Under the pieces are notes generated by a model. That model was not told the origin of the DNA, searched no databases, and was given only the letters and a program-made list of their open reading frames with translations. Both the position numbers and the translations under genes were made by a program. A stretch of DNA of 57,479 bases, from positions 1-57,479 of the forward strand of contig CBFICN010000003.1 of assembly GCA_965661045.1 (NCBI GenBank), written 5' to 3'. The stretch comes from an uncultured Myxococcota bacterium (GTDB taxonomy: Bacteria > Myxococcota_A > UBA796). Below are positions 27,034 through 51,541 of the stretch, piece after piece. Each line of letters begins with the position of its first letter. The first letter of the stretch is position 1.

Positions 27034-27038
27034 TGCAA

Positions 27039-27067: not shown

Positions 27068-27075
27068 CAGTGGCG

Positions 27076-27321: not shown

Positions 27322-27393
27322 CTGTGCTCCAAGAGTTTTCAATGGTGTTAGTTTATATGAGAATATATCGACTTTGACCTGTCGGGAGTATCG

Positions 27394-29203: not shown

Positions 29204-29279
29204 AGTTTCTTATGTAAAACGGTCAATCAAATCTGGTCAATGTTCTTTTGTGTCGGATACGTTGCACTCAACAGTTGCT

Positions 29280-29993
29280 TTATACAGATGAAGCATAGAT
29301 CAATACAATACTGTAAAATGCTGCCAATAGACCCAACAATCCCAGCAAATACCATCGAAACTCATTCCATATTCCAGTAGGTTGGGTGTGATCTTGAATC
29401 TGACTGGTGTTTTGCAAAACCGCTTCATTGGTCTGCCAACGGCGCAAAGAAGTGGGCGTGGGAATCAACATTGGAACGGCTTCACAGTAGGTGGCGTACT
29501 CTTGTCCAAACCGAAGGTGACAAAAACGTTCTTGAATGAGGCGATTGGAAACAATGGCATAGACGAGCAATATGGGCACAAAGAGCAGTAAAAACGCTGG
29601 GGACCCCCACATGACACCCAGTCCAATGACCCCAAGCAGTTTGCCGAGCACAGAGGGGTGTCGAATGGTTGCGTAGGGTCCAGTATCCACCAATCGGACA
29701 GGTCCTCCGTCGACGTGCGTTCCAGGAGAGCCACCTCCAGCAATGAAGAGATATCCATACACGTACCATACCCACAGTCCACCAATGGCAATCGCGCTGG
29801 CTCCGACTGGATATCTCCAGAAGGGATGTCCAACAGTTTGCCAACCAACGTGCGCATCCAACTGGGTTCCCAGCCAACACATTACCATCGCTGCTGGAAA
29901 CATCACAAACGCATGAATGGCAAAGTTTCTATAGAGTTCAGGACTGCGAATCGCGGCAAAACAGGCAGCAGTGGTGGGGCGAATACGGTTCAT
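29280..29993 (-). CDS. ICMT/PEMT-family membrane methyltransferase
   Basis: 237 aa, multi-TM. GPYATIRHPSVLGKLLGVIGLGVMWGS resembles the RHP(M/S)Y motif of isoprenylcysteine carboxyl / phospholipid methyltransferases. Confidence 0.55.
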   Translation of the reverse strand: MNRIRPTTAACFAAIRSPELYRNFAIHAFVMFPAAMVMCWLGTQLDAHVGWQTVGHPFWRYPVGASAIAIGGLWVWYVYGYLFIAGGGSPGTHVDGGPVRLVDTGPYATIRHPSVLGKLLGVIGLGVMWGSPAFLLLFVPILLVYAIVSNRLIQERFCHLRFGQEYATYCEAVPMLIPTPTSLRRWQTNEAVLQNTSQIQDHTQPTGIWNEFRWYLLGLLGLLAAFYSIVLIYASSV

Positions 29994-34500: not shown

Positions 34501-34596
34501 TCATTGGGTACGCTTCTTTGAACTGAATGGCAATGAACACCCATTCATATTGTGTTACAGATAATCCAGTCGATTTTACTCAGAAAAGGAAACTGT

Positions 34597-35871
34597 ATGC
34601 ATTTTGAAGAACGTATCGCCATCATTGATGGTTTGAGATCCCCCTTTGTTAAATCTTGGAGTACATTGAACGGTATCGATCCTGTGACCTTGTCGACCCA
34701 CGTAACCAGAGAATTATTGTTTTCTGTTGGACTCGACATCGAAACGGTGGACCAAATTGTGTGGGGAACGGTTGTTTCCGTACCGAGATCACCAAACGTT
34801 GCCCGAGAAGTGGCGCTGAACTTAGGGCTGTACAGCACACCTGGATTTACGATTTCACGTGCCTGTGCCTCCGGATTTCAATCGATTGCTTCAGCGGCAG
34901 AGTCTCTTTGGATGGGGCACGCCTCCATCGCAGTGGCGGGGGGCGTCGATGTGACCAGTAATGCACCGGTCCCGCACAAGAAGGCGGTCATCGACAAGTT
35001 GCGTGCGTTACCCAAAGCGAGTACAGGTCAAAAAGTGAGTACCATTGCCGGTTTGAGACCCAGTGACTTTTTTCCTGTTCCTCCAGCCATTACCGAGCGC
35101 TTTACCGGCAAAACGATGGGCGAACACGCCGAAGACATGGCGAAGTATTTTGGCATTGCCCGCTCCGAACAGGAAGCGTTCGCCATTGAATCTCACAAAA
35201 AAGCCCACAAGGCGACCACTGAAGGGCACATTGCCAAACAAATTGCTCCGATTTTGAACGGCAAAAAGATGGTTGATTCCGACAACATCATTCGTCCGGA
35301 AATGAAACCAGAAAAACTCAAGAAGATGCGTCCTGTATTTGATAAAGTGGCGGGGAGTATTACCGCTGCGACCAGTTCTGCATTGACTGATGGAGCCAGT
35401 GCCGTGCTTTTGATGCGGGAAAGTACGGCCAAAGAGCTTGGTTTGACACCAAAGGGCTTCTTGAAGTCTTATGCGTTTCCAGCGTTGGACCCGCGTGAGA
35501 ATATGCTTCTTGGAAATGTGTATTCTGCTCCTATTGCGTTGGAAAGAGCCGGTTTGACCTTGCAAGACCTCGATCTGATTGAAATACACGAGGCTTTTGC
35601 TGCACAAGTATTGAGCAATTTGAAGTGCTTTGGCGATGACAAGTTCTTCCAAGAAAAATTGGGGAGAGACAAAGCTTTGGGGGACATTGATATGGACAAA
35701 CTCAACATTTGGGGTTCTTCTCTGGCCTATGGGCATCCTTTTGCAGCCACCGGTGGCAGAATGATCATGACCTTGTTGGATGCGTTGAAGCATACCGATG
35801 GTCAATATGGACTGGCCACAGCCTGTGCTGCGGGTGGACTTGGTGCTTCGATGATTGTAGAGCGCGCATAA
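34597..35871 (+). CDS. fadI: 3-ketoacyl-CoA thiolase (FadI/FadA-type acetyl-CoA C-acyltransferase)
   Basis: ATG 34597 after AAAGGAAA. ISRACASGFQSIASAA (active-site Cys), NIWGSSLAYGHPFAATGGR, ATACAAGGLGASMIVE. Confidence 0.9.
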   Translation: MHFEERIAIIDGLRSPFVKSWSTLNGIDPVTLSTHVTRELLFSVGLDIETVDQIVWGTVVSVPRSPNVAREVALNLGLYSTPGFTISRACASGFQSIASAAESLWMGHASIAVAGGVDVTSNAPVPHKKAVIDKLRALPKASTGQKVSTIAGLRPSDFFPVPPAITERFTGKTMGEHAEDMAKYFGIARSEQEAFAIESHKKAHKATTEGHIAKQIAPILNGKKMVDSDNIIRPEMKPEKLKKMRPVFDKVAGSITAATSSALTDGASAVLLMRESTAKELGLTPKGFLKSYAFPALDPRENMLLGNVYSAPIALERAGLTLQDLDLIEIHEAFAAQVLSNLKCFGDDKFFQEKLGRDKALGDIDMDKLNIWGSSLAYGHPFAATGGRMIMTLLDALKHTDGQYGLATACAAGGLGASMIVERA

Positions 35872-35894
35872 ACGACTCAGATGGAGAACTCCCT

Positions 35895-38357
35895 ATGACA
35901 CAAAATACAGAAACAAATGCACAAATCCGTCTTGAACAACCCGATGCAAATGGTGTTGCCGTCGTCTGGATTGATATGCCGGACAGCAAAGTGAACGTCC
36001 TCAATACCGATACTTTACCAGAGTTCAATGCACTGATGACAGAAGTCAAAGCAAACCGCAGCATCAAGGCGGTCGTGATTGCATCAGGCAAAGAAAATAA
36101 TTTCATTGCAGGTGCCGACATTTCGATGTTGAATACGGTCACCAGTGTCTCTGATGGGGTGGAATTGTCCAAACAGGGACAACAGGCCATGAACGATTTG
36201 GCATCATTCCCTGTACCAGAGGTCGCCGCCATTCATGGTGACTGTTTGGGTGGAGGACTGGAACTGGCCTTGGCTTGTACTGCGCGGGTTGCTTCTGACA
36301 GTCCCAAAACCAAGATGGCTTTGCCAGAGGTGATGCTTGGCTTGCTTCCAGGGGCTGGGGGCACAAGACGTCTTCCCAAACTGATTGGGTTGGCGGAGGC
36401 TTTGCCAATGATGTTGACGGGGAAGAATATTCGAGCTCGAAAAGCCTTAAAAATGGGGTTGGTAGACAAAGTGGTTCCACGAGTGTGGTTGCTGGATGAA
36501 GCCAAGAAATTCGCTGCGGAATTGGCCTCAAAGCGACTTCCTGTACCGGCACGCAAAGCCAAAGGAAATTGGACTGCTCAAATGACGCGTTGGGCGATGG
36601 ACTCTCTGGGACCGGTGCAAAATCTTGTGTTTAACAAAGCGGTTGAAGGGGTGATGAAGCAAACCAAAGGTCTGTATCCAGCTCCGTTGAAGATCATTGA
36701 TGTGTTGAAAGCCGATACCGACGACGCCGAGGCGCAAGGGTTTGGAGAATTGTTGATGACGCCGGAATCTCAAGGGTTGAGGCACTTGTTCCATTGCATT
36801 ACCCATCTGAAAAAGGACGATGGCGATCATACTGAGAATGTCGATGCCCGATCCGTTCACCACGTGGGGATTTTGGGTGCGGGTCTGATGGGTGGTGGAA
36901 TCGGTACGGTACTGGTCGACAAGGGCATCACGGTCCGTATGAAAGACATTTCCTATGACGGGATTCAAACGGCTATGGGGTACGCCAATACGTATTTCTC
37001 CAAGGCCGTGAAACGTCGCCGCTATCCAAAAGCGGGCAGAGATGAGAGAATGAACCGGTTGAGTGGTGGGTTGGATTACCGTGGCTTTGCCCATGCAGAT
37101 GTGGTGATTGAGGCCGTTCCAGAGATTCTTGAGCTGAAACAGGACATGGTTCTGCAAATTGAAGAACTGACACACAAAGACGCCATTTTTGCAACCAATA
37201 CATCATCGTTGCCGATTACCGAGATCGCAGCAAAGGCAAAACATCCTGAGCGGGTAATTGGGATGCACTTTTTTAGTCCAGTAGAGAAGATGCCGTTGGT
37301 TGAACTCATCGTTACCGAGTACACCAGTTCAGAAGTGACCAAAACGGTTTCCAAACTGGCCCGCAAAATGGGCAAGCACGTTATTATTGTCAACGATTGC
37401 GCAGGTTTCTATACCACCCGCGCGTTGGCACCCTATTTGACTGAAGCCATCTTTATGTTGCTTGAAGGCTATGATGCGTTGGATGTGGATCAGGCAGCCA
37501 TGGAAGCCGGGTTCCCAGTGGGACCAATCACCTTGCTCGACGAGGTGGGTATCGATGTTGGGGCCAAGATCATTCGGGTGATGCAAAAGTATTACGGTGA
37601 TCGCATGCAGTTTCCAGACATGACAACCATAGACAATTTCATTGCTGAAAAGCGCTTTGGCAAAAAGAACAGCAAGGGTTTTTTCGTCTATGAAAATGGG
37701 AAGTCCAAGATGGTCAACGGCAAAAAAGTAGTGGACCAGACCATCAAACGGCATTTACCAAAAGTCGAAGCCCGCAACACCAACATTGAAAGTCGAAAAT
37801 TGCTGGCCAAACGTCTCAAGTTTATCTTCATGAATGAAGCGATGCACTGCTTGGAAGAAGGCATCTTACGAGACCCAGAGGCTGGAGACCTTGGCGCGAT
37901 CATGGGAATTGGGTTCCCACCCTTTACAGGTGGCCCTTTTGCGTTGATGGACAGCATCGGCACCAACAAGGTGGTATTTGATTTAGACGATTACGCCGCG
38001 AAATTTGGTTCTCGTTTCTCGCCACCCAAACTGTTGCGTGAGTTGGCTGCGTTCAACACACCGGTCTATGAGTATTGGAAGACGAAACGTTCTGAAACGG
38101 CGTATGCAGTGGAAGAAACTGGGACGGATGATTCTGAAGATACTGGTGTTCCAGATGCACAGAGCGCTGAAATATCCAATGACCACTTTGAACCTCAGCC
38201 TGAATCTCAACAAACAGACATCTCGATTGCTGATGCAGGGGAGCAAGAATCCGTGGCAATAGAGACCGACGCCACAGAAAATGCTGACGGCGTAGAAGTC
38301 GAGGAAGTCGAAAATAGAGAGGAAATCGAAGATAGAGAGGACAGCGAAGAAGGCTAG
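35895..38357 (+). CDS. fadJ: Fatty-acid oxidation complex alpha subunit (enoyl-CoA hydratase + 3-hydroxyacyl-CoA dehydrogenase) with an 88-aa acidic C-terminal tail
   Basis: ATG 35895 after GGAGAA. Crotonase part (FIAGADI, GDCLGGGLELALAC), NAD fold ILGAGLMGGGIG, HFFSPVEKMPLVE. Tail SETAYAVEETGTDDSED...EEVENREEIEDREDSEEG. Confidence 0.9.
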   Translation: MTQNTETNAQIRLEQPDANGVAVVWIDMPDSKVNVLNTDTLPEFNALMTEVKANRSIKAVVIASGKENNFIAGADISMLNTVTSVSDGVELSKQGQQAMNDLASFPVPEVAAIHGDCLGGGLELALACTARVASDSPKTKMALPEVMLGLLPGAGGTRRLPKLIGLAEALPMMLTGKNIRARKALKMGLVDKVVPRVWLLDEAKKFAAELASKRLPVPARKAKGNWTAQMTRWAMDSLGPVQNLVFNKAVEGVMKQTKGLYPAPLKIIDVLKADTDDAEAQGFGELLMTPESQGLRHLFHCITHLKKDDGDHTENVDARSVHHVGILGAGLMGGGIGTVLVDKGITVRMKDISYDGIQTAMGYANTYFSKAVKRRRYPKAGRDERMNRLSGGLDYRGFAHADVVIEAVPEILELKQDMVLQIEELTHKDAIFATNTSSLPITEIAAKAKHPERVIGMHFFSPVEKMPLVELIVTEYTSSEVTKTVSKLARKMGKHVIIVNDCAGFYTTRALAPYLTEAIFMLLEGYDALDVDQAAMEAGFPVGPITLLDEVGIDVGAKIIRVMQKYYGDRMQFPDMTTIDNFIAEKRFGKKNSKGFFVYENGKSKMVNGKKVVDQTIKRHLPKVEARNTNIESRKLLAKRLKFIFMNEAMHCLEEGILRDPEAGDLGAIMGIGFPPFTGGPFALMDSIGTNKVVFDLDDYAAKFGSRFSPPKLLRELAAFNTPVYEYWKTKRSETAYAVEETGTDDSEDTGVPDAQSAEISNDHFEPQPESQQTDISIADAGEQESVAIETDATENADGVEVEEVENREEIEDREDSEEG

Positions 38358-38421
38358 ATGTTACTGGATCCAGTTTTATATACAAATTGGTACAAAGATG
38401 GTGGTTGAGTTTCAAGAAGTC

Positions 38422-39240
38422 TTATTTGGCTTGTTGTCGTTGCAGCCACCACCACGCCGGTACGGATATCAGTAGAATGGATCCCAGCCAAGCGCTGAGT
38501 ACACCGAGAATATTGCCAAACATTGGAAATGTGACGATGCACAGCAATGCATACAGTGCCACCGAACTGGAGCCCAGCATCATTGGTCCTACGGCACCTG
38601 CTTGGACTGCCTCTCCTTGTGAGAGCCAAATGGACACCATAGTGGTGAGGAAAATGGCAGGAAATACCGATGCCATTCCCGCCAACACTGGGTAGCCCAA
38701 TCCCGCTATCCAAGCGGACAGTCCAACGGCGAATCCAGCCAACAGACCCCTTGAGAGCAACACAAAAATCGATACAGGTCGCTTTCCTTTGGGGGTAGGC
38801 ACCCCATCCAAACAGGCCCAAATCCCAAATGACAGCAACAGTACTTGCCCAACGATGCCGACCATCAAGACTTGATCGTCATTGACTCTGTCCATGAACC
38901 ACACAAAACCGCTTGCGGATATGGCCCATATCATCAAAGAGATTCCACTCATCCATCCCAAGCGTACTCTCAAAGGGTGTGTCGGTGACAGTTTTGGAGG
39001 AACAACCCTCCAGGTATACAGAAAGAGCGCATTGATCAGCATACCGATGGGAACCACAGCCAATGCCGCTGTCAATTCTGTTGTGTTGGCAGAATGGGAG
39101 AGAAACCCCAACGACGCAGGAACGATGGTGGTGGGGATCGACCCCAATAATCCTCCCAACGCGCCTCCAAACTTCTCAATGCAGACCGTGGCAAAAATAG
39201 CCATGGCGCCAGCGAGAAGAGCGACCCACAAGACGGACAT
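38422..39240 (-). CDS. Polytopic membrane protein of unknown function
   Basis: About 8 hydrophobic segments. I prefer ATG 39240 (MSVLWVALLAG...); the ORF track extends to 39330. Confidence 0.5.
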   Translation of the reverse strand: MSVLWVALLAGAMAIFATVCIEKFGGALGGLLGSIPTTIVPASLGFLSHSANTTELTAALAVVPIGMLINALFLYTWRVVPPKLSPTHPLRVRLGWMSGISLMIWAISASGFVWFMDRVNDDQVLMVGIVGQVLLLSFGIWACLDGVPTPKGKRPVSIFVLLSRGLLAGFAVGLSAWIAGLGYPVLAGMASVFPAIFLTTMVSIWLSQGEAVQAGAVGPMMLGSSSVALYALLCIVTFPMFGNILGVLSAWLGSILLISVPAWWWLQRQQAK

Positions 39241-39381
39241 TAGACGATGCCCATCCAGTAACTCATCGTGAGATAGGGCAGTCCTATGCCAACAACAACG
39301 ATAAAGGCACACCCAGAGTTTTTGCGCCACGAGCGTTTTTTCATCCAGTCTTCATCGTTCATTGTGTTCTCCATATACTCT

Positions 39382-39753
39382 CTAGGAATTGTCTTGTAAC
39401 ATCTCCAGCAACTGATTGGCGTCCACAAGTTTCTTGAGATCGGTAAAACCCCCAACGAGTACGCCTTTGACGAACACTTGTGGAAAGGTTGGCCAGCCAG
39501 ACCACATTTTGATCGCCAATCGAGGTTTCCACTGGGATATGTAGGACCCATACTCCAAATAGGTGAACGGTTGATTGTTGCTTTTGAGCAGTCGACACGC
39601 GCGTTTGACAAATGGATTCCAAGCCATTCCGACGACAACGATGTCATCTTGTTGCACATGGTTGGCGACTTCTGCAATCACGTTGGCATGATAACCAGTC
39701 ACTGTTGCTGCAATGGTCGGGGATAATCTTTCCAGAACGGGACGTGTTGTCAT
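39382..39753 (-). CDS. Glutaredoxin-fold protein lacking the active-site cysteine
   Basis: 123 aa. WPTFPQVFVKGVLVGGFTDL matches the Grx4 core (WPTFPQLWVDGELVGGCDI), but the CGFS position reads VGMAWNPFVKRA. Confidence 0.6.
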   Translation of the reverse strand: MTTRPVLERLSPTIAATVTGYHANVIAEVANHVQQDDIVVVGMAWNPFVKRACRLLKSNNQPFTYLEYGSYISQWKPRLAIKMWSGWPTFPQVFVKGVLVGGFTDLKKLVDANQLLEMLQDNS

Positions 39754-39898
39754 AGTGTCTCCAAGAGTGTAAATATGTTCATTTCATATATGAACAGTGC
39801 AAAAAGTCCACCCATCGAATACAGATTCGAATATATTGATAGAATCAAGCTCTCTTTTGACACTTGTATTCTTGGAATCAATCACCAATGAGGAAACC

Positions 39899-40801
39899 AT
39901 GCTAATTTTGATGTCTTGGATGTTGTCGACGGCCGATGCGTATGTCGATCCAGCTTGTATGGCAATTGCAGACACCGATGGGGATGGCGTTGCCGGACCT
40001 GCCCCCGAAGACTATTCGGAGACACAGCAAAACAATTACCTTCTCAACTTCTATTCTTTGGCGACGACTTTCTCTGCGTTGCACGCTCCGATTCCACACG
40101 AACCAGGAACGGGGTCTATGGGGTTGGAATTGTCAATGATGCCGGCTTTGGCCTGTGATAAGCGCTTGGTGTTGAGTTATACCAAAACGGAAGACACCAA
40201 CAAAACACCGGTGTTGCCTCGTCCCAGAGGGTCTTTTGCATTTCCAAGTATTGATTTGAGCAATGGAAAATCCATTGTGCCCTACGCTGGGTTCGGCTAT
40301 GTACCACCGGTTCCCATTGGCGGTACTCGAAATGTGATGGTTTCAATGGAGGCGGGTGCGGGTTATGCTGATTTAAAGGAAGGTAAGTGGCAAGCCGGTC
40401 TTCGTTACCATGCAACGCTCATGCGAACGGTCGGAGAGATCGCGACGCCTTTTGATATCAACGACCCTGCATACATCGATTTGTATTTGGGCTCAACATT
40501 TGGATTGGACGCTTCGGTTGGGTACAAAAGCGGTGACTTTACCCACTATGCTTCGGCCGGATGGTTGGATGTGAGTACGTTCTTCTACATTGACGATGAT
40601 GCTGTAGTCTCCAACAATACAGTCCCCTATGCGGGACCCACCATCTCCATCGGCTCTCAGTGGAAAGCCAAAGAGTTTTTGGATGTGGCTGGAGAAGTGT
40701 ACGCCGCCCCCACGACCCTCTTTGATTTGGATGGGTTTAACATTTCTCCAAAAGATGGGTCGATTTACACTGCTCGTTTTAAAGTTGGCTATCTGTTTTA
40801 A
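39899..40801 (+). CDS. Putative outer-membrane beta-barrel protein
   Basis: ATG 39899 after GAGGAAACC. Signal MLILMSWMLSTADA. Alternating-hydrophobicity strands; C-terminal ...RFKVGYLF ends in Phe as in OMP sorting signals. Confidence 0.5.
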   Translation: MLILMSWMLSTADAYVDPACMAIADTDGDGVAGPAPEDYSETQQNNYLLNFYSLATTFSALHAPIPHEPGTGSMGLELSMMPALACDKRLVLSYTKTEDTNKTPVLPRPRGSFAFPSIDLSNGKSIVPYAGFGYVPPVPIGGTRNVMVSMEAGAGYADLKEGKWQAGLRYHATLMRTVGEIATPFDINDPAYIDLYLGSTFGLDASVGYKSGDFTHYASAGWLDVSTFFYIDDDAVVSNNTVPYAGPTISIGSQWKAKEFLDVAGEVYAAPTTLFDLDGFNISPKDGSIYTARFKVGYLF

Positions 40802-40856
40802 GCAGTGAGGTGGTGGTGAGGTCACAGAGTGGGCATCCGTATTGCACTGTTCTTGC

Positions 40857-43800
40857 TTATTGATCCTCTTGAGCACGTTCGAGCGCTTCAATGATGGCGG
40901 GTCGCAACTGCTTAGCCTCAATAATTGCGTCGAGTGAACCAACATCAATTGCCCGTTGAACGCTGTGGATATTGTCAAACTCAGTTGCGATGATGCCACG
41001 TTTCTCCAACGTCAATGTAGTGAGCATTTTGTTGCGTTCTTCTAGCAAAAATGGTTTTTCTGCATTTCGGGCTTCTTGGATTCGCTTGTCCAGTTCGATC
41101 AAGCGTTCATCTTCATTGACCAGCGCTTTGACTTTTCGAGGGAATACGACCGCAGCAGCCGGTGCGCCTCCAATAACAGAGGCAAAGGAACCTTCGACTG
41201 CAATGGCCGTGATATTGGGGTTGAGTGCTTTGGAAAACACCACATAGGCCCCACCGTGATAGCGCCCAATCACGACGAAGACGATCGGTGATGCACAGTT
41301 GACCACTGCGCGTCCAATTTCCGCGCCGTACTCTAGTTGCAATCTGCGCAACGACTCGGGTGAACCATCAAACCCACTGAGATTGGCCAGTACCACGATC
41401 GGCGTTTGTCCACTGGCTGCATTGATGGCGCGCGCAATCTTTTTGGAACTTTGCGGAAATAGGGTACCCCCAGTCCAGGTGTCGGGGCCATCCAAGGGCA
41501 CTCGACCACGCCGCAAGATCGGTTGGGATTCAATTCCAATGACTGTGCTGGAAATCCCTCCAATGTGCGCAGACCACACAATGGCCGATTCTCCTTGGTG
41601 CAGTTGAGCAAAGCGTTCAAGATACTGACTGTCCTGATCAATCAGTGCTTGCATCACTTGACGAATGGCGAACGGCTTTTTTCGTTCTGGGTTGTGCTCT
41701 TTCGAAAAGATATCCCCAATCCGTTTGAAGTAGGGGTGATTCTCATCGGTATAGGGATGTAAGCACACATTTCTATTGGGAGAGTCATTGGTCAACTGTT
41801 TGGGAGATCGACCGGTTTGTGGGTCACAGAAGGTGTGTCGATAAATCTCAAACAAGAGGGCATAGGCCTCTCCCAAATCAGCAACTCGGTATTGGGATTG
41901 TCCGTTTGGTCCCATGATGCGCTCAACACCACCGATGCCACGCTCGTCTTCAGCAGAAACGCCCCCTGAAAAGTCCAGTGCCTTCTTCCCTGTGAGAACC
42001 ATGGCGGCTTGGGTTGTCATAATCAACACCCCTTTGGTGTGCATGAGCATCGTGGCTTCTGCATTCCAGTACGATTGCGCACCCACGTTGATTCCGTGTA
42101 CAATGACGTGAATGACCCCACCTGATTGGGTAAATTGGATGATTCGCTCCAGAACTCGGGCAGTCCAGTCAAGGTTTTCCGTACCGGAGTTCATGGATAT
42201 CATGGCCCCAGCCGAAACAGGGACCCACTCAACAGGAATGCTCAGTTCTAAAGCCAAATCAAGCGCCGCCATAATGCGAGAACACTCTTTTTCTGCCAGT
42301 GACCCCATCGCTTTCGTTGAGTCGGATCCAATCCAAATGCGTTGCATTCCTTGTGGAAATTTACTCGTGGTGTTGTTGATAATTCCTACAACGACACCAC
42401 AATTGTTTTGACCAAAGGGTCTCAACACTGGAACAAACTGACCACTGGAATTGAAGTCGTATTCTTGAAAACGACCGTTTCGCATGTCTGGATGTGGAAT
42501 GTTCAATGCGGTGGGAGACCCTTCAAGCATTCGAATGATTTCATATGGGTAGACGTGTCCAAACTTCTGGGCCCGTACGGCCTTCATATCATAGGTGGAC
42601 ATCGGTGGGATGGCCAGATGGTTGTCGAGCCAGTTGAATTCAAGCTGGTTGTTTCCTGACCGTCGGAGCTGAATGGTCGACCATTGGAATCGACTCGCCC
42701 GGGTTCGTAGGTGCAACTGAACTTCTCTAAGGTTTAAGCCACGCGTGTAGGGCTCTAACTGCTTGGCAAACAGTTGCAGCTCGGCTTCGTTGGTGTCCAA
42801 CTGGGGGTGGATGTGAAAGTAGAGCCAGTTCCACTGCAATCGTGATCGCTTTGTGCGTTGAGACTGTGTACTTCGGATCGCGCGAATGGCTTCAAAAAAT
42901 ACCCGTTCAAAGTGACGCAAGGGAAATGCTGCCCCTTCCGTGGAAGAGCCAAACACCTCGGCCAGCACAAAGATCCGTTCGTCTTTGGCATTGCTGTGGG
43001 CTTGTCCCAAAAACGCATAGATGTGTTCTTGTGAATAAATGCGAGACAGTTTGAACTCTTTGAGCCTTTCTAGTTTCAGTCGACTGGCAACTTGAGGGTG
43101 GATGTCGTTGAGCAAGGTTTGGAAGCGCCATTGTCCCTTTTGATAGACAAAGGTTCGATGGTGCGCCAGTTCGTTGTTCATCCAGGTCAGCGTGATGCGT
43201 TTGGGTTGAATCGGGAGTGTTGTCAGCAGGATGGGGGCTTGTTCAAGCCAAGACTCATCCAGTCCTTGGGGCAGTACAAATTCCAAATAGGTTGCCGGAT
43301 TGATCATCAGTTGCAAAATCTGTAGGATATTGTCTTTTGTGGTGTCGGGTTTGAACAGGATGGACAGGATGCGATCGGACTGGTTGATTTTCCCTTCGAC
43401 CAGAGCGTGCCCCTCTACCTCGGCATCATTTGTCCAAGTGTAGGTCTCCCCAATGTAAAAACGACGCGTCAGCGCTTCAATGATTCGGTGCGGTTGAGCG
43501 CCACTCTGCATTTGATACAGCGTTTGTTGGAGGGCTTGTGGTGATCGGCCAAGTTTCCGCATAACGGTGCGAACCACTTTGCTGTCGGCGTCGTAAGATT
43601 CCATACTCGAAAACATTTCCTGAACGGCTGCGGTTAGGGCTTCCATTTGTCGTCTGTTTTCACCGTGGGCAAAGAACAGGTGGTGGGCATGAATCGCATT
43701 GTCCTGTACATAAGGGTGGTCGGTGTGGGCCGCTTGACCTGTTTTTTCAAGGATGTCTTCAAGTTCTGCCGGTGGAGTCCAGTTGGTTTGGTGTAAGCGG

Positions 43801-46391
43801 ATTACAATGCGCAGCAGTCCAGACGCAACGTGGTGGCGCCAAGTGCTGTTGTCGTTTCCAAGGGCCAATCTAAATAGGGCTTCTTTTAGGTGGGTGTCAT
43901 TCGTTAAGGAGTCGATGTGGTACCAGTGCAAGGCTCTGTTCAACATTTCTTCAACGCATTCCAAGATATTGTCGTCGTGGTGTTGTCGACAGAAGTCATA
44001 AAAGGCTGCATTGGCTGGGATTGTGGTGGTGCTGTCCAGATCCAATAGCAGTGTCCGATCGAGCAATTGTGTAGCGTCCGAGAACATGGATAGGCATTCA
44101 ATAAATCGGTTCCAAATGTTGGGGTGCGCGCAGTCCGATACGGTTGCGGAACTGTCCAATATTTGATCCATCATGTCGCTCATGGTTGGCGTAATGTCAA
44201 AGCCAAGCATGGATGCTCGAAACAAAGCGTGCAACTCTTCCAACACTGTTTCTTGTACTGCGCCTTCGAGCGTATTCAAGCGACTGAGTTCAAGCCGACC
44301 TTCACTCCACAATTCTGCAAATAAAATGCGATTGGGACTTTCAAACCCTTGAGACTCCACACTTTGGTCACTGGATTCATCTTCCAAATCCAAGACGAGT
44401 AAGGCGTCCCCAATCAAGACCTGTTGATTGACTTGACATAGAATCTCTTGTACTGTTCCCGCTTCCGAAGCAAAGACGCCCAGTTCCATCTTCATCGCTT
44501 CAAGTGTACACAAACGATCACCGACGTTGACGGTGTCCCCAGGCGAGACGGAAACACTGACGATGACAGCGGGTGTTGGGGAGCGCACGACACCACCCGA
44601 AGAACGTTCAATGGTGTGGCTGTATCCATCCAATTCAACTGTAATACCAGCACTTCCATAGGAGTAGAGGATTTTATGCCGCTGTTCTCCTACCCACATT
44701 TCAGCAATGTGTGGCGAGATGGTTTTCAACTGAACGCGGTGCAGTTGTTGAGACACTTCCACCACAAAATCATCCATGTCCCAGGCGGCAACCGTCATTG
44801 AGTATTCCATTCCACGGAGCTTCAATTCTACCTCAAATCCTTCGTTGCTGGGGAACTGAACGGGGATACCATCTTGACACTGTTGAAAGAAGCGATCCAT
44901 GTTGACGTGGGTATTTCGCTTGTATTCTAATATTGCTGCTGCGAGAAGTGCTTGCTTTTCTGCGCCGACTCGAACCACAGAACCGGCTGCCATGGCTCGG
45001 TCTAGCCAGTCTGTAGCCGCCGTTGCGTTGACGAATTCTTCGTGTCGCAAAATGTCCAACAGGAAGGCTTGATTGGTTGCGCCATCTTCTACTGCGGCGT
45101 CGAGTTCCAAACAGGCTCTGCGTGCACGGGCAATGCACAATTTTCGCGTCGGTGCCCAAATGATGATTTTGGCAATCATGGAGTCGAAGTGTTCTGAGAT
45201 CGTGGATCCTTCCGTGATACCGCTGTCTACTCGAACACCTGGTCCAGCGGGCGCTCTAAAGATGGCGACGCGTCCTGGAGCTGGACGAAAATCTTGCTCA
45301 GGATCTTCGGCATTGACGCGCAACTCAATGGCGTGTCCATGCACCAATTTGGTGGGGGGAGACCATGTCCAACCTAGGGCTATGGATATTTGAGCTTGTA
45401 CCAAATCGGCACCCGTAATCGCCTCTGTGATGGTGTGCTCCACTTGCAGCCGTGAGTTCACTTCCAAAAATGTGGTGGTTCCACTATTGGGCTCATATAG
45501 AAATTCTGCTGTGGCGACGCCCTTGTATCCACACAGTCTTGCCAATTTCTCCGATGAACGCATCAGCAGTTCACCGACTTCGCTGGGAAGGATTGGGGAA
45601 GGGGCTTCTTCAATCACTTTTTGATTGCGTCGCTGAATGGAGCAGTCTCGGATACCAACGGCGTGTGCAGATGTGTCTGTACATACCAGTTGCACTTCGA
45701 TGTGTCTCGCTTGAGATACACATCGCTCCAGCAGAATTCCCCCTTGACCAAAGAATTTCTCGACTTCGCTGTGCACCGTTTGGACGGTTTCTGCCAACTG
45801 TTCTGGGGCGTTCACTTTGCGAATACCGCGACCACCACCACCTGCTGAGGCTTTGACCATCAGTGGATAGCCAATTCGATTTCCATGCTCAATGAGTTCC
45901 GCATCATTCCAATCGCTTTTGTATTCAGCCCAAGGAGCCAACGGAACCCCAGCTTTCTCCGCCATGTATTTTGCCGCGATTTTGTCTCCCAATTGACTCA
46001 TCGCCTTGGAGGATGGACCCAAGAATACAATATTGTTGGATTCAAGTTTTTCGACGAACAAGGGGTCTTCAGATACAAATCCCCATCCTGGCCAAACTGC
46101 ATCACAGTGATTGGCTTTGAGCAACGCCACAATCCAAGCGTGGTCTAAGTACGCATTGACAGTTTTTCCAGTGGGCAATGTACGCATGATACCACCGATG
46201 CAAATAGCTTCGTCGGCTTGGCGAACGAACGGCATGTGTTCATCTGGCTCTGTATAGAACGCCACCCCTTTGATCGAGGTTCCATGGATTAAGTTGAATT
46301 CCTCGAGGGCTCGAAGAAATCGAACCGCGGGCTCTCCACGATTGATGATGGCAACTTTGGAAAATAACTGTGTCTGCATTGGACTCCCCAT
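40857..46391 (-). CDS. Single-chain multidomain biotin-dependent carboxylase, eukaryote-type acetyl-CoA carboxylase architecture (BC - BCCP - central region - CT)
   Basis: 1844 aa. Biotin carboxylase (VAIINRGEPAVRF, MVKASAGGGGRGIRKV, EEAPSP, EVNSRLQVEHT), TDWLD linker, biotinylation motif CTLEAMKMEL (Lys codon 44490..44492). Roughly 480-aa middle region. Carboxyltransferase (VVVGIINNTTSKFPQG, GARIG-like region, LANLSGFDGSPESL, GRYHGGAYVVF). Confidence 0.9.
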   Translation of the reverse strand: MGSPMQTQLFSKVAIINRGEPAVRFLRALEEFNLIHGTSIKGVAFYTEPDEHMPFVRQADEAICIGGIMRTLPTGKTVNAYLDHAWIVALLKANHCDAVWPGWGFVSEDPLFVEKLESNNIVFLGPSSKAMSQLGDKIAAKYMAEKAGVPLAPWAEYKSDWNDAELIEHGNRIGYPLMVKASAGGGGRGIRKVNAPEQLAETVQTVHSEVEKFFGQGGILLERCVSQARHIEVQLVCTDTSAHAVGIRDCSIQRRNQKVIEEAPSPILPSEVGELLMRSSEKLARLCGYKGVATAEFLYEPNSGTTTFLEVNSRLQVEHTITEAITGADLVQAQISIALGWTWSPPTKLVHGHAIELRVNAEDPEQDFRPAPGRVAIFRAPAGPGVRVDSGITEGSTISEHFDSMIAKIIIWAPTRKLCIARARRACLELDAAVEDGATNQAFLLDILRHEEFVNATAATDWLDRAMAAGSVVRVGAEKQALLAAAILEYKRNTHVNMDRFFQQCQDGIPVQFPSNEGFEVELKLRGMEYSMTVAAWDMDDFVVEVSQQLHRVQLKTISPHIAEMWVGEQRHKILYSYGSAGITVELDGYSHTIERSSGGVVRSPTPAVIVSVSVSPGDTVNVGDRLCTLEAMKMELGVFASEAGTVQEILCQVNQQVLIGDALLVLDLEDESSDQSVESQGFESPNRILFAELWSEGRLELSRLNTLEGAVQETVLEELHALFRASMLGFDITPTMSDMMDQILDSSATVSDCAHPNIWNRFIECLSMFSDATQLLDRTLLLDLDSTTTIPANAAFYDFCRQHHDDNILECVEEMLNRALHWYHIDSLTNDTHLKEALFRLALGNDNSTWRHHVASGLLRIVIRLHQTNWTPPAELEDILEKTGQAAHTDHPYVQDNAIHAHHLFFAHGENRRQMEALTAAVQEMFSSMESYDADSKVVRTVMRKLGRSPQALQQTLYQMQSGAQPHRIIEALTRRFYIGETYTWTNDAEVEGHALVEGKINQSDRILSILFKPDTTKDNILQILQLMINPATYLEFVLPQGLDESWLEQAPILLTTLPIQPKRITLTWMNNELAHHRTFVYQKGQWRFQTLLNDIHPQVASRLKLERLKEFKLSRIYSQEHIYAFLGQAHSNAKDERIFVLAEVFGSSTEGAAFPLRHFERVFFEAIRAIRSTQSQRTKRSRLQWNWLYFHIHPQLDTNEAELQLFAKQLEPYTRGLNLREVQLHLRTRASRFQWSTIQLRRSGNNQLEFNWLDNHLAIPPMSTYDMKAVRAQKFGHVYPYEIIRMLEGSPTALNIPHPDMRNGRFQEYDFNSSGQFVPVLRPFGQNNCGVVVGIINNTTSKFPQGMQRIWIGSDSTKAMGSLAEKECSRIMAALDLALELSIPVEWVPVSAGAMISMNSGTENLDWTARVLERIIQFTQSGGVIHVIVHGINVGAQSYWNAEATMLMHTKGVLIMTTQAAMVLTGKKALDFSGGVSAEDERGIGGVERIMGPNGQSQYRVADLGEAYALLFEIYRHTFCDPQTGRSPKQLTNDSPNRNVCLHPYTDENHPYFKRIGDIFSKEHNPERKKPFAIRQVMQALIDQDSQYLERFAQLHQGESAIVWSAHIGGISSTVIGIESQPILRRGRVPLDGPDTWTGGTLFPQSSKKIARAINAASGQTPIVVLANLSGFDGSPESLRRLQLEYGAEIGRAVVNCASPIVFVVIGRYHGGAYVVFSKALNPNITAIAVEGSFASVIGGAPAAAVVFPRKVKALVNEDERLIELDKRIQEARNAEKPFLLEERNKMLTTLTLEKRGIIATEFDNIHSVQRAIDVGSLDAIIEAKQLRPAIIEALERAQEDQ

Positions 46392-46505
46392 GGTGAACTC
46401 ACTTCCATATATTGCATTTGATCGGTCAATTCAATTGCCATAAGGCGTGTCGAGCATTCAAAATAACGATACAAGAGGTACGGTATTTTCTGTGAGGGAG
46501 GAGAG

Positions 46506-47570
46506 ATGGCAGACAAGACAATAGCGGTATTGACCTCAGGTGGTGATGCTCCAGGTATGAATGCAGCTCTGGTCGCCGTTGTGAAGACCGCTTCGGCAGC
46601 GGGATGGTCCGTCTTGGGGGTTGAAGATGGCTATGATGGTTTGATGGACGGGCGATTTCAACCATTGAACCCAATGATGGTGGATGATTATGGGCGTGAA
46701 GGCGGAACCTTTTTGCGATCGGCACGTTCTGAAAAGTTTCGCACCGTTGAGGGACGGACGCAGGCTGCAGCCAGGCTTCTCGCTGCGGAGTGTTCTGTAT
46801 TGATTGTGATTGGTGGGAATGGCTCTTTGACAGGTGCACAAGTCTTTGGAGAAGAAAGTGGAATTCGCGTTGTGGGAATTCCAGCCAGTATTGACAATGA
46901 CATCGCCTGTACATCCCTTTGTATTGGTGTGGACACAGCCGTAAATTCAATCGTAGAAGCCTGTGATAAGATTTCTGATACGGCACGGTCTCACAGAAGG
47001 GCTTTCATCGTTGAGGTAATGGGGCGCGAATGTGGGTATTTGGCGATGGCATCAGCGATTGCTGCTTCTGCAGATGCCGTACTGTTTAAGGAGCAGGGCA
47101 AAGATGAAGAACAACTGGTTCAGGAACTCAAAGCGGTCATTCGCCATGCCTACTCAGAGGTTCGAAACAAACGTCGAGTGTTGATCATCAAAGCCGAGGG
47201 TGTGGATGTGTCTACTGCCTCGTTGGCGAAGCATTTGGAAACTACGATGCAAACAGAAACCAACGGTGCGACTTTGCGGTATACCATTTTGGGACATGTC
47301 GTTCGAGGCGGGAGACCGTCTGCTTTAGACCGCATCATTGGTTCGAGATTGGGATTTGTTGCTGCTCAACTTGCAATGGAGGGGCACACACAAATTATGG
47401 TTGGCTGGCGTCCCTATGAAGAAGGAAGTGTGACAGCCGATCCTCGAGTGTGTTATTTTGCTTTGTCAACTGTGCTCTCAGAGACCAAGCGATTGCTCGA
47501 TGGGTCCCATCCAACGACAAGACAACGACTGGAGATGTTGGCAAAAGTTCAAAATATCCTCCTATTGTAG
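46506..47570 (+). CDS. pfkA: ATP-dependent 6-phosphofructokinase
   Basis: 354 aa. VLTSGGDAPGMNAA, IGGNGS, PASIDNDI, VEVMGRECGYLA, LGHVVRGG. GGGAGGAGAG RBS. Confidence 0.9.
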   Translation: MADKTIAVLTSGGDAPGMNAALVAVVKTASAAGWSVLGVEDGYDGLMDGRFQPLNPMMVDDYGREGGTFLRSARSEKFRTVEGRTQAAARLLAAECSVLIVIGGNGSLTGAQVFGEESGIRVVGIPASIDNDIACTSLCIGVDTAVNSIVEACDKISDTARSHRRAFIVEVMGRECGYLAMASAIAASADAVLFKEQGKDEEQLVQELKAVIRHAYSEVRNKRRVLIIKAEGVDVSTASLAKHLETTMQTETNGATLRYTILGHVVRGGRPSALDRIIGSRLGFVAAQLAMEGHTQIMVGWRPYEEGSVTADPRVCYFALSTVLSETKRLLDGSHPTTRQRLEMLAKVQNILLL

Positions 47571-47594
47571 GAGCTTCTTCATTCACGAGGTTTT

Positions 47595-49469
47595 ATGAGT
47601 GGGTCCAATGAGTATCGCGAGCTGACATTTGAAGCCGTTTTCTTAGGGATTGTACAAGGGGTTGTACTGAACATTGCATTTGTGTATGCAGCCCTAACGT
47701 TGGGGTTCTCGATTGGTGGTTCGACTGTGGCGGCAATCATCGGGTATGGATTGTTGAGGGGGGTTCTTAAAAAAGGCACCATCGTCGAAAACAACATCAA
47801 CCAAACGATTGCGTCTGGAATCAATACCGCTGGGACAGGGGTGGTGTTTACCTTACCAGCATTGTTTATGTTGGACGCCAAAATGCGTACCGATACAGGC
47901 GTTGGAATTCTCGCAGAAGAAGGCAACTGGTTGCAACTTCTATCGGGGATCACGCTGGGTGGGATTGCCGGTTCGATCTTGGGGGTGGTCCTGATCATTC
48001 CGTTGCGAAAACAGATGATTGCGCTGGACCGTTTGCGTTTTCCTTCTGGGGTTGCCGTCGCGGAAATTTTGTCGACTGGGGGTACGAGCCTCAATAAATT
48101 TCGATTGCTGTTGATTGGGGTCGCTGTTTCGGGTGTGTGGAAAATGATTCTTGCGACAGGCATCATCAACCGGCCCGGTATTTTGATGAACGAAGAATTG
48201 AATATCTCCTTTGGAGTGATTCCAGATTATTTTGCACCCGTGCTCTATTTGTCGCTGATGAACGTTGCCGCCGGTCTCTTGTCAGGAAAGGGTGGGGTGC
48301 CGTTCTTCGTTGGTGGCGTGTTGGCGTGGTGGATCATCTCACCGGTTGCGGTGCAACTTGGGTGGATTCAACCGGAGGCACTGTATCAACTGGCTGAGTT
48401 CAGAGAGGGGTCGATTGAGAATGGTACAGAGGTATTTTCGTTGCTCCATGGCGATATGATTCGTCCGTTGGGGATTGGCGTCTTGATTGGTGGCGCTGTC
48501 ATGAGTGTATTTGCGACGTTTCCCGCTATACGCAGTGCCTTTTCTTCTTTGGCGTCGGCCGCTCGATCAAACGCCATAGGCAAGTCGACGGTCGTGGGCA
48601 GTGATGAACTCTCCTTAAACGTTGTTATTGGTGGAACAGTGTTGGCTGTGCTCTTATTTTTCTGTGCGGCCTACATGACACCGGGCGTCAACTTTAGTCA
48701 GGCGGTACTGTCGGCAACTGTGGGGACCATTTGGCTGGGGATTGCCGGTTTGATTGTGGCACAGGCGACAGGGATGACCGACATCTCTCCCATGAGCGGG
48801 ATGGCTCTGATTTCCGTGACTTTGATGATGTTTCTGCTGAACAACAACGTGGCGGCCGCGATGGTCGTGGGGGTTGCGGTTTGTGTAGCCATCGGTCAAG
48901 GTGCCGATATGATGCAAGATTTGAAAACGGGTTTCTTGGTTGGTGCACGTCCCATTAAACAGCAGATCATCCAGTTTTGTGTGACGTGGATCGGTTCAGT
49001 GGTTGCCATTGCAGTGGTCTATTTGATTTGGTCGAGTGGTCCGAACGGTGCCAATGGGTTTGGTCCAGGAACGGCTTTCCCTGCGCCGCAAGCAGGCGCA
49101 TTGATGGGCATCGTAGACGGTGTCATCAATGGCAATATTCCTGTGGACAAGTACTTTCTAGGTGGCACAATCGGTGTCTTGCTGGGGGCAGCCCCAGCCA
49201 GTGGGTTGGGTGTTTTGGTCGGTTTGGCAATGTACTTACCCTTTTCTATCACCCTCGGATATGGCGTGGGTTGTTTTATCAACATGTTCTACGTTCGCAA
49301 ACATGGAGACAGTGGGTACAACAATACACTTGTGCCCTTGGCCGCTGGACTCATCGTTGGGGAGGCATTGATGGGAGTCGGGTATACCATCTATCAGATT
49401 GCAACTGACTCTGTGGGCGAAGAGGGAACTGCCGCGCTCATAGACTTCGTTGGAGGGTTCTATGGTTAA
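47595..49469 (+). CDS. OPT-family oligopeptide transporter
   Basis: 624 aa, about 16 TM. N-terminal ELTFEAVFLGIVQGVVLNIAFVYAALTLGFSIGGSTVAAIIGYG and QDLKTGFLVGARP are typical of bacterial OPT proteins. Confidence 0.8.
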   Translation: MSGSNEYRELTFEAVFLGIVQGVVLNIAFVYAALTLGFSIGGSTVAAIIGYGLLRGVLKKGTIVENNINQTIASGINTAGTGVVFTLPALFMLDAKMRTDTGVGILAEEGNWLQLLSGITLGGIAGSILGVVLIIPLRKQMIALDRLRFPSGVAVAEILSTGGTSLNKFRLLLIGVAVSGVWKMILATGIINRPGILMNEELNISFGVIPDYFAPVLYLSLMNVAAGLLSGKGGVPFFVGGVLAWWIISPVAVQLGWIQPEALYQLAEFREGSIENGTEVFSLLHGDMIRPLGIGVLIGGAVMSVFATFPAIRSAFSSLASAARSNAIGKSTVVGSDELSLNVVIGGTVLAVLLFFCAAYMTPGVNFSQAVLSATVGTIWLGIAGLIVAQATGMTDISPMSGMALISVTLMMFLLNNNVAAAMVVGVAVCVAIGQGADMMQDLKTGFLVGARPIKQQIIQFCVTWIGSVVAIAVVYLIWSSGPNGANGFGPGTAFPAPQAGALMGIVDGVINGNIPVDKYFLGGTIGVLLGAAPASGLGVLVGLAMYLPFSITLGYGVGCFINMFYVRKHGDSGYNNTLVPLAAGLIVGEALMGVGYTIYQIATDSVGEEGTAALIDFVGGFYG

Positions 49470-50031
49470 TCAACGATGGGCTGGAATCATTTTGTACTCC
49501 TTGGGAATCTGCATCGCAGCGATTGGCGCATCTAAGCTGCCAGAAGTTGGCCAATCTTGGTCTGACACGCTGTATTGGTTCAATGATGGTGTCATGTTGA
49601 CAATTTTGGGACTTTGGATTTGGCGACAAGGCACCGAAGAAGAAGAAAGTACAGAAACAGAAAAGAAGCGTACACCGGTGCAACTCATTCAAGATATTCA
49701 GCCAATTTTGAACGATCTGTATCGAAATGTAGACGATTTAGAGTGCTACCAGATCCAAGAGTATGTCAAAATTCTCCAAGAGCAGTATCTGATGCCTCTT
49801 GAATCGGTGCGTGGAAAAATTGTCACCCAATTTGGCTTGGAAAAATCTGGAGAACTGTTGATCGCCATTTCCTATGGGGAACGTGTGATCAATCGGATTT
49901 ATTCTGCCTCTTTGGATGGTCACCACGATGAAGCCCTTGAATGCACCGAAGAAGCCCACGCTGCCTTTGAGCAAGTTTTGACAATTGCACGCCGATTGTG
50001 GACAACGGAGTCTTTAGTAGACAAAAAATAA
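49462..50031 (+). CDS. Small membrane-anchored protein of unknown function
   Basis: ATG 49462 after GGAGGG, overlapping the OPT stop by 8 nt. Two TM segments, then a helical soluble domain. Confidence 0.5.
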   Translation: MVNQRWAGIILYSLGICIAAIGASKLPEVGQSWSDTLYWFNDGVMLTILGLWIWRQGTEEEESTETEKKRTPVQLIQDIQPILNDLYRNVDDLECYQIQEYVKILQEQYLMPLESVRGKIVTQFGLEKSGELLIAISYGERVINRIYSASLDGHHDEALECTEEAHAAFEQVLTIARRLWTTESLVDKK

Positions 50032-50164
50032 CGCTTGTGATTTGCCCGGCTAAGGGTTTGCCCTATTTATTAATTGTGCATTGAGGCACTGCGCGTTGGT
50101 TTCTCCCCCAATAACACATTTCGATTTCGGAGTGTATGAAGTCAGCCGCAAAGCTTGGGTGGGT

Positions 50165-51541
50165 TTATTCTCCTTTACCACCCAAGTTTTTTTTTGCCTG
50201 GTTTCGATGGAGCCGTTGTTTGGTGTACTCATATTGATAGAGTGAACCATTCTCATTTCGCCAAAAGGAATCCCCACCTTGACTGCGCCTTTGACTCGTA
50301 AAAACCAGTGAACCTGTTGAGTCCCACGCACCCTTTGCATTGATGAAATAGGGTGTATTCTCTAGATGGGTCATATGGGAAAAGGACTCGGAGGTTTCGA
50401 GCCTCACTGGTTGGGTGAGCACAGAGCCTTGTAGACTGTGTGCATGAATTGAATAGGTCCATTGCTTTGGAGAATCTGATTTGGTCTCCAGGGATTTCTT
50501 GGTCAGTGCAGAAAGGAAAAGCCCGTTCGCATCAGAGACAGCAAACTGCAGGTTTTCAATGGTTGTGTCTTTGGAGGTTTGAAGGATGCGGGTGCTTTTG
50601 GGTGGCAGGCTGTCCACCTGTGGGTTGCCAGTTTCGGTTACGGAGAGTAGCCAAGCTTCACGGTCGGTCGACAGGGCAATGAGTGGCGTACCGGCTTGAC
50701 TGATACCGGTTGTGTATTGTGTGGGTTTCGACCCTGTATAGAGTTTTCGAAAAGAGACGGCTCCCTGTGGCGTGGCCCTCAACAGGTAGAGTGTGCCGAC
50801 GTCTTTTCCAGCAATCCAAAGTGGCAGTAGAAATCGTCCGTTGGCGTCGGTGATGGCTTGGCCAATCAGATGGACTGTATTGGCGGGCCAAGGAATGGCG
50901 GCTTGCAGTGGGGGTTCCAGTCTGTCTCTCGCTGCAGGCACAATCGTCAAGGATTGTCCTTGCAACCAATACAGGTGGTGATGCAGTCCAAGGTGGGCAC
51001 TGGTGCCAAACTGTGCATCGTTCCCAATGCTGGCGATGTAGTGTGGGAGTTCGAATCCTTTGAACAGGTGGTGTTCAGGCGTTGTCCAAAGTATGGTGTC
51101 TAAGGGGGTGAACAGAGCGTTTTCCAGTCCAACTGCATCAACGCCATCAAAGGTCTTAGGGTGAACGATGATGGTTTGCTCAAATGGCACTTCGTTCAAG
51201 GGGGTTTGGATTGCAAATTGTATCGTTCCGGTAGTCCAAGCAGCGGAATTGGGTACTTCAAATCGAAACTCTTTGAGTCCTCTGGATGCGATCGAGACAG
51301 TTGCTGGTGAGGCATCGTCTGGCTTGCTTGAGTGAATATGTTGTGTCCCAGTCGATGTTTGAATTTGAAACTCTACTTGCCATCGTTGCTTGCCAATATC
51401 GGGAACTTTTTCGGTTTGCGGACCGTCATTGAACAGTTGAAGGTCTATGTAGAACTTTTCGCCCGCAATGTGGTGGGTGGGCACAGAGTGGGTGATGACA
51501 ACATCGGCGTGTGCCATTGTCGAGAGAATTAGGGGGAGCAT
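50165..51541 (-). CDS. Hypothetical secreted protein (beta-rich)
   Basis: I prefer ATG 51541 (AAGGAAAA RBS; signal MLPLILSTMAHA). Overlaps the cca stop by 13 nt. Lys-rich C-terminus. Confidence 0.5.
   Translation of the reverse strand: MLPLILSTMAHADVVITHSVPTHHIAGEKFYIDLQLFNDGPQTEKVPDIGKQRWQVEFQIQTSTGTQHIHSSKPDDASPATVSIASRGLKEFRFEVPNSAAWTTGTIQFAIQTPLNEVPFEQTIIVHPKTFDGVDAVGLENALFTPLDTILWTTPEHHLFKGFELPHYIASIGNDAQFGTSAHLGLHHHLYWLQGQSLTIVPAARDRLEPPLQAAIPWPANTVHLIGQAITDANGRFLLPLWIAGKDVGTLYLLRATPQGAVSFRKLYTGSKPTQYTTGISQAGTPLIALSTDREAWLLSVTETGNPQVDSLPPKSTRILQTSKDTTIENLQFAVSDANGLFLSALTKKSLETKSDSPKQWTYSIHAHSLQGSVLTQPVRLETSESFSHMTHLENTPYFINAKGAWDSTGSLVFTSQRRSQGGDSFWRNENGSLYQYEYTKQRLHRNQAKKNLGGKGE

Follow-up and report, generated by a model that had tools for sequence, protein, structure and literature searches.

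The window analysed here, a 57,479-nucleotide stretch of contig CBFICN010000003.1 from an uncultured Myxococcota bacterium (assembly GCA_965661045.1), encodes a single-chain acetyl-CoA carboxylase (ACC), here designated P0001. The gene occupies 40857..46391 of the minus strand as one uninterrupted frame of 1844 aa with an ATG start, stop codon included, as seen in the list of open reading frames (ORFs) and in the translation, and the predicted mass of the product is 205 kDa. P0001 is a biotin-dependent carboxylase that joins biotin carboxylase (BC), biotin carboxyl carrier protein (BCCP), central and carboxyltransferase (CT) domains in one chain, and its gene is intact. Judged by its sequence, it belongs to the bacterial homodimeric multidomain ACCs, a known enzyme type represented by SACE_4237 of Saccharopolyspora erythraea; only the host lineage and the anticorrelation with accA documented below are new. 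P0001 is likely a functional acetyl-CoA (probably acetyl/propionyl-CoA) carboxylase, which most likely replaces the heteromeric AccABCD as the main source of malonyl-CoA. We infer this activity, together with the substrate, the dimer state and the housekeeping role.

Pfam identifies Biotin_carb_N (residues 10-131), CPSase_L_D2 (136-342, E 5e-51), Biotin_carb_C (356-464), Biotin_lipoyl, ACC_central (1064-1205; score 30.4 bits, cut-off 23.2; positions 501-646 of the 726-position profile) and Carboxyl_trans (1348-1839, E 1e-37; profile positions 56-477 of 493). An earlier note on this DNA had described a single-chain ACC with BC, BCCP, a central region and a two-lobed CT in one ORF; the Pfam order and the intact frame agree with it, and all four families that it proposed to search for (CPSase_L, Biotin_lipoyl, ACC_central and Carboxyl_trans) are found. 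Residues 10-468 match the accC-type models of NCBIfam over the full model length (E 5e-129), and a family-specific model for single-chain ACC is absent among the best 25 of the 55 matching NCBIfam families. Pfam ACCA_BT has no match in P0001; human propionyl-CoA carboxylase (PCC) alpha (7ybu_A residues 60-727, BT region included) aligns continuously with residues 7-667.

The catalytic motifs are retained throughout the chain. The BC domain carries the glycine loop GGGGRG (residues 184-189) and EVNSRLQVEH (310-319), and the motifs RHIEVQ and QKVIEE are also kept. The motifs quoted earlier lie at the places given for them, with EAMKM at residues 631-635, where codon 44490..44492 encodes the predicted biotinyl-Lys634, and with the CT motifs LANLSGFDGSPESL at 1668-1681 and YGAEIGRAV at 1688-1696. 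The CT also carries ANLSGFDGS at 1669-1677. TDWLD (460-464) had been likened to a eukaryotic linker motif. The likeness holds, as T-x-W-L-D is common to the commonest forms of the aligned bacterial and eukaryotic single-chain proteins, but the motif closes the Biotin_carb_C domain and is not part of a linker. In the homologue alignments, the family-invariant BC and CT columns are retained in P0001, and ANLSGFDGS occurs without change in each of the 20 closest homologues and in 34 of 42 family representatives. The homologue P0002 is 95% identical to P0001 and likewise 1844 aa long. The G+C content of the gene is about 0.50, the same as that of the window.

The region between the end of the BCCP (residue 667) and the CT comprises about 600-620 aa. 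By sequence alone it matches the Chaetomium ACC central domain weakly (E 6e-4). An AlphaFold2 model of residues 668-1300, calculated from a 42-row homologue alignment (mean pLDDT 86.9, pTM 0.69), is helical in its N-terminal part and continues with alpha/beta subdomains. All 30 Foldseek matches of this model in the PDB at E <= 0.001 are eukaryotic ACC entries, with yeast ACC as the best (8.7e-21). VIA-align superimposes it on human ACC1 839-1603 with a Z score of 31.2 (515 residues aligned, root-mean-square deviation 6.5) and on yeast ACC 790-1557 with a Z score of 30.4 (498 residues aligned), the next unrelated structures scoring about Z 8. The match spans model residues 19-632, corresponding to protein residues 686-1299, and extends across chain residues 795-1493 of the yeast BT-BCCP-AC1-AC5 crystal construct (5csa). 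Because the predicted model matches the yeast and human central domains nearly end to end, the central domain appears complete in fold, corresponding to the whole eukaryotic ACC central domain and not to a remnant. The earlier estimate of roughly 480 aa for this region is therefore too low, the actual length being about 620 aa. Its description as shortened stands in so far as the domain, at 622 aa, is shorter than the median of 799 aa in 18 eukaryotic ACCs, but the model shows a complete fold and no 480-aa remnant. In the same comparison, the CT has 555 aa (eukaryotic median 758), the BC 463 aa (506) and the BT-like linker 130 aa (134.5).

The CT domain is closest to those of eukaryotic ACCs among known structures, as had been claimed from its motifs. 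A sequence search of the PDB places eukaryotic ACC CT domains first (E ~1e-16) and PCC-beta-type CTs behind them (~1e-9); AccA and AccD chains of the E. coli type are not matched at E <= 0.001. CT trees come from a quick IQ-TREE search (model LG+C20), and their branch support is SH-aLRT alone. The bacterial single-chain proteins of the 59-row tree fall into one clade of 42 rows (SH-aLRT 95), which holds four actinobacterial rows (99) and a 16-row group (99) of the window protein and its nearest homologues. The 12 eukaryotic ACCs group together (100) without any bacterial row, as sister to the bacterial single-chain clade, and the two together (99) are split from two 13S-type CT families of this genome and its relatives. 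This topology recurs in an 86-row tree, where the supports are 91, 100 and 98. The tree label 'myx' denotes the closest homologues of P0001, about half of which carry a Myxococcota-type name; the eukaryotic rows are mostly stramenopiles plus two fungi, and sequences of AccA/AccD, long-chain acyl-CoA carboxylases (LCCs) and SACE_4237 are not in the trees. Very long branches (3-7 changes per column) separate the groups, those between bacteria and eukaryotes measuring 3.45 and 6.19. In the BC tree (47 rows, 7 short BC rows dropped), the eukaryotes stand beside two accC outgroups (SH-aLRT 91), with several long branches. Of the two phylogenies proposed in the earlier note, that of the CT thus places the protein in the bacterial single-chain clade, while that of the BC is uninformative on origin. 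A specific sisterhood of Myxococcota and eukaryotes was also considered and is rejected, because in the CT trees the eukaryotes fall outside the entire sampled bacterial clade.

The family is large. About 7,900 proteins of 1,014-3,227 aa match P0001; the best 120 of them measure 1,694-2,004 aa and have the same Pfam set, and those named by organism come from Myxococcota or 'Deltaproteobacteria' metagenome-assembled genomes. At E <= 1e-30, the CT alone as query retrieves 527 clusters (50% identity level) from a set of 1.84 billion representatives, and a search of the ESM Atlas returns the same family with almost no taxa attached. A cluster look-up of 10 representatives gave names for 3, and most rows labelled 'rep' in the trees carry no taxon. 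In addition, tblastn of a plasmid collection yielded named actinobacterial homologues from Nonomuraea, Tsukamurella and Gordonia and from two Embleya records. BLASTP aligns P0001 with four of these proteins, one from each genus, at 39-40% identity from residue 6-9 to residue 1838-1841, and with two eukaryotic ACCs in fragments at 21-32% identity. The earlier note had reasoned that the protein would be ordinary for its clade if it lacked an ACC_central-like region and stood closest to actinobacterial multidomain carboxylases of established function; the closest named full-length relatives are indeed such carboxylases, but the ACC_central-like region is present. When the central domain and CT were used to look for relatives that are longer or fused, in a search weak in that its words were drawn from the first 500 residues, a single protein came back, the eukaryotic ACC P0270.

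Three further observations concern members of the family. P0252 (2381 aa), found in the CT cluster search, has a biotin protein ligase (BPL_LplA_LipB and BPL_C) fused to the C-terminus of a single-chain ACC, so that the enzyme and its biotinylating enzyme are on one chain. P0159 (1995 aa), an EukProt entry labelled Mesostigma viride, has a CT 55% identical and nests in the bacterial clade near Actinobacteria; either the protein set is contaminated with bacterial sequence or the gene was transferred. Among the 42 family representatives, five are without the glycine-rich ATP loop and seven full-length ones have a BC segment shorter than 430 aa, and degraded BC domains thus recur in the family.

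According to the available sections of Livieri et al. 2019 (PMC6491548), SACE_4237 is a ~200-kDa homodimer with a eukaryote-like central region, carboxylates acetyl- and propionyl-CoA, is essential in Saccharopolyspora and has a CT that clusters with eukaryotic ACCs. P0001 resembles it as one chain of ~200 kDa with BC-BCCP-central-CT order and a eukaryote-homologous central region; its CT is allied to those of eukaryotic ACCs and shares a clade with four actinobacterial members. It differs in its Myxococcota host and in its separate Myxococcota-labelled subclade (SH-aLRT 99). The same sections list orthologues of this 'actinobacterial homodimeric multidomain ACC' for actinobacterial families only, including Streptosporangiaceae, the family of Nonomuraea, and the available part of Lombard and Moreira 2011 (PMC3199775) treats polypeptide ACC as solely eukaryotic. 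No description of the enzyme in Myxococcota was found in the literature searched. Eukaryotic ACCs (yeast Acc1 and human ACC1; PDB 5csl, 8xkz) share with P0001 the domain order, the whole central-domain fold as modelled, and the motifs T-x-W-L-D, [AV]MKM and AN..GF.G. In contrast to them, P0001 is ~400-500 aa shorter (1844 versus 2200-2500 aa), with CT, central and BC domains below the medians; it lies outside the eukaryotic CT clade, has no ACCA_BT match and carries ANLSGFDGS where they have ANWRGFSGG. Bacterial LCCs (~120 kDa) also have all catalytic domains on one chain, but as described in the available sections of PMC6491548 they are homohexamers without a central domain, with another domain order and in a separate CT group, whereas P0001 has a central domain and a C-terminal CT. 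The heteromeric AccABCD shares the overall reaction and the BC and BCCP chemistry, but consists of four subunits with the CT split into AccA and AccD halves, unlike the single chain of P0001.

By analogy with the family and with the structures of eukaryotic ACCs, the N-terminal ATP-grasp domain would carboxylate the biotin on Lys634, and the BCCP would then swing to the C-terminal CT, which would transfer the carboxyl group to acetyl-CoA, yielding malonyl-CoA. The central domain of ~600 aa would act as a non-catalytic scaffold that places BC and CT in the dimer. In this Myxococcota genus, the malonyl-CoA would feed lipid and polyketide-type synthases.

The distribution of the enzyme relative to the canonical subunits suggests a housekeeping role. 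The earlier note had proposed to look for accA-D in the same genome, and no accA or accD is over the cut-off in this assembly (4.32 Mb in 439 contigs, 77.66% complete). In a set of 31 relatives (labelled G with a number, the host being G000), the single-chain enzyme is present in six genomes (G000-G003, G005 and G024), namely this genome and five relatives. In none of these six, not even in G001 (93% complete) and G024 (99%), does accA (TIGR00513) or accD (TIGR00515) exceed the cut-off; of the 31 genomes, 18 pass it for accA and 15 for accD. Across 301 Myxococcota genomes (297 of high quality), with the two best candidates per genome scored, the enzyme is found in 114 and accA in 107: the single-chain enzyme occurs alone in 100 genomes and accA alone in 93, 14 have both and 94 neither. 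Within the window's order, accA is present in 15 of the 17 genomes of family f4 and in four of the five of family f6, and the single-chain enzyme in the other two and the other one, respectively. The single-chain enzyme is anticorrelated with accA across Myxococcota, and this complementary pattern supports displacement of AccABCD. Since accA and accD are not found in the host genome or in the five enzyme-carrying relatives, and since the enzyme and accA are anticorrelated, P0001 is probably the housekeeping source of malonyl-CoA. The rarity implied by the earlier note does not hold, given the 114 Myxococcota genomes and the end-to-end homologues in Actinobacteria.

The host genome also contains other biotin-dependent enzymes. 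Carboxyl_trans is found at two places only, in this gene and in a CT-BCCP fusion on contig C54, which neighbours a BC gene; contig C178 carries a third BC, with a small BCCP. The genome also has a biotin ligase. The genes on C54 (locus L014, 3714..7182, minus strand) encode a 447-aa biotin carboxylase followed by a 671-aa 13S-type carboxyltransferase fused to a C-terminal BCCP. The same pair occurs in G001 (contig C34), and similar frames of 650-750 aa are found in relatives with and without accA.

Several points weigh against a housekeeping role. The host assembly is incomplete, two candidates per genome were scored in the phylum sample, and the related genomes are not independent, so that a simple test overstates the association between enzyme and accA. 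The likeness to SACE_4237 rests on the four actinobacterial members and not on its own sequence, and the BC tree is uninformative on the relation to eukaryotes. In the 14 genomes with both, the single-chain enzyme is an extra one. Moreover, a third route to malonyl-CoA exists in Myxococcota, because 94 genomes have neither enzyme nor accA and the five of them that were checked carry 2-4 PCC-beta-type CTs each. The genus itself also has PCC-type enzymes, including a 526-aa CT in G001 besides the BC and CT-BCCP pair. As the genomes with neither imply this third route and the genus has PCC-type enzymes, the housekeeping role is one that we infer. The same observations would suit an accessory carboxylase that feeds malonyl- or methylmalonyl-CoA to megasynthases of the polyketide or polyunsaturated fatty acid type, with a two-subunit PCC-type enzyme (BC or BC-BCCP plus 13S-type CT) as the housekeeping ACC. 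This reading is further favoured by ketosynthase-acyltransferase (KS-AT) and ketosynthase-dehydratase (KS-DH) megasynthase frames, which appear Pfa-like, on the same contig of G001 (C33, 34000-45000) ~19 kb from the ACC gene. We regard it as rather unlikely, since the gene in the window stands alone, apparently monocistronic, between a divergent phosphofructokinase gene upstream and a convergent gene of no assigned function downstream, and the genes that separate it from the contig end are unrelated. In addition, relatives that have accA and relatives that lack it both carry CT-BCCP and PCC-beta-type genes, so that these genes do not follow the loss of accA; in families f4 and f6 the single-chain enzyme does.

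A catabolic role in which propionyl-CoA, a longer acyl-CoA or the like takes the place of acetyl-CoA as main substrate would fit the thiolase and 882-aa FadB-like genes 2.5-6 kb away, the difference between ANLSGFDGS and the eukaryotic ANWRGFSGG, and the use of propionyl-CoA besides acetyl-CoA that the available sections of PMC6491548 report for SACE_4237. It is nevertheless quite improbable. The fad-like genes are on the opposite strand and separated from the ACC gene by two frames of no assigned function, ANLSGFDGS is shared by the 20 closest homologues and most representatives of a family whose characterised member makes malonyl-CoA, and the architecture is unlike that of the LCCs described in the available sections of PMC6491548. 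That P0001 is a catalytically impaired paralogue with a non-ACC role, as the representatives without the ATP loop (5 of 42) or with a BC segment under 430 aa (7 of 42) might suggest, is very improbable indeed, because it keeps GGGGRG, RHIEVQ, QKVIEE, EVNSRLQVEH and the biotinylation motif and matches the accC models over their full length. The preferred reading is a functional acetyl-CoA carboxylase in place of AccABCD.

Enzymes that consume malonyl-CoA were looked for as well. No fabD match is over the cut-off in G000, G001, G003, G024, G135 or G294; in the first five of these, the acyltransferase matches that score best are embedded in frames of 1,400-5,400 aa, and in G294 in a 317-aa frame. 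In the window's genus (g1: G000, G001 and G003), acyltransferase domains are found only inside frames of 1,400-2,800 aa, and no fabH is over the cut-off (~115 bits against 292), while it is present in 19 of the 31 relatives. A divergent cluster of KAS, KAS, FabZ-like and ACP-like genes lies on contig C36 of G001 (22400-29400), with counterparts on contigs C42 and C296 of G000. It is conceivable, though we propose it tentatively, that AccABCD was displaced by the single-chain ACC several times in Myxococcota (in at least three families of the window's order), and that in this genus the swap accompanies the loss of canonical FabD and FabH, malonyl transfer being left to megasynthase acyltransferase domains beside the divergent KAS/FabZ/ACP cluster. 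Entry into lipid synthesis as a whole would in that case be rewired around a eukaryote-style carboxylase.

The useful result is the distribution, with the enzyme in 113 of the 297 high-quality Myxococcota genomes (~38%) and largely excluding accA. Because of this exclusion, automated annotation that seeks accA-D will wrongly call fatty-acid initiation missing in these lineages. The family also extends to phyla beyond the Actinobacteria named in the available sections of PMC6491548, which weakens the proposal made there of an actinobacterial origin for eukaryotic ACC; the trees identify no donor.

Table 1 Positions of the P0001 gene, its domains and neighbouring genes in the window
Feature	Position	Strand	Basis or remark
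Whole gene, 1844-aa single-chain acetyl/acyl-CoA carboxylase (P0001)	40857..46391	-	stop codon 40857..40859
Biotin carboxylase (ATP-grasp), residues 10-464	45000..46364	-	Pfam Biotin_carb_N + CPSase_L_D2 + Biotin_carb_C
BT-like linker joining BC and BCCP, residues 465-600	44592..44999	-	alignment to human PCC alpha
Biotin carboxyl carrier domain, residues 602-667	44391..44588	-	Pfam Biotin_lipoyl E 2e-15
Non-catalytic central domain (predicted), residues 686-1299	42495..44336	-	AlphaFold2 model, Foldseek, VIA-align; Pfam ACC_central
Carboxyltransferase domain, both lobes, residues 1300-1844	40860..42494	-	Pfam Carboxyl_trans; PDB matches
Phosphofructokinase gene	46506..47570	+	
Thiolase (439 aa), then 882-aa enoyl-CoA hydratase/3-hydroxyacyl-CoA dehydrogenase fusion	34552..38357	+	FadA/FadB-like
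PolyA_pol head-domain protein	51529..52767	-	
403-aa frame	52764..53975	-	6PF2K (E 8e-67) + His_Phos_1 (E 2e-39)
Suv3-type DEXQ-box helicase, 805 aa	53975..56392	-	PF22527, E 2e-28

The stretch 35092..52398 is collinear with a genome of the same genus at 83-85% nucleotide identity, and the chromosomal surroundings of the ACC gene are conserved within the genus. At this locus, coupling in an operon with fatty-acid or polyketide synthase genes was considered and rejected, the neighbours being unrelated. The frames listed for the thiolase and the FadB-like protein overlap by ~160 nt, and for this reason the true start of the 882-aa gene is probably downstream of 35709. The 403-aa frame, a few kb from the phosphofructokinase gene, has by its domain matches the architecture of a bifunctional 6-phosphofructo-2-kinase/fructose-2,6-bisphosphatase, which is best known from eukaryotes. 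The Suv3-type helicase and the nearby PolyA_pol head-domain protein may form an RNA-turnover pair, a pairing better known from mitochondria.

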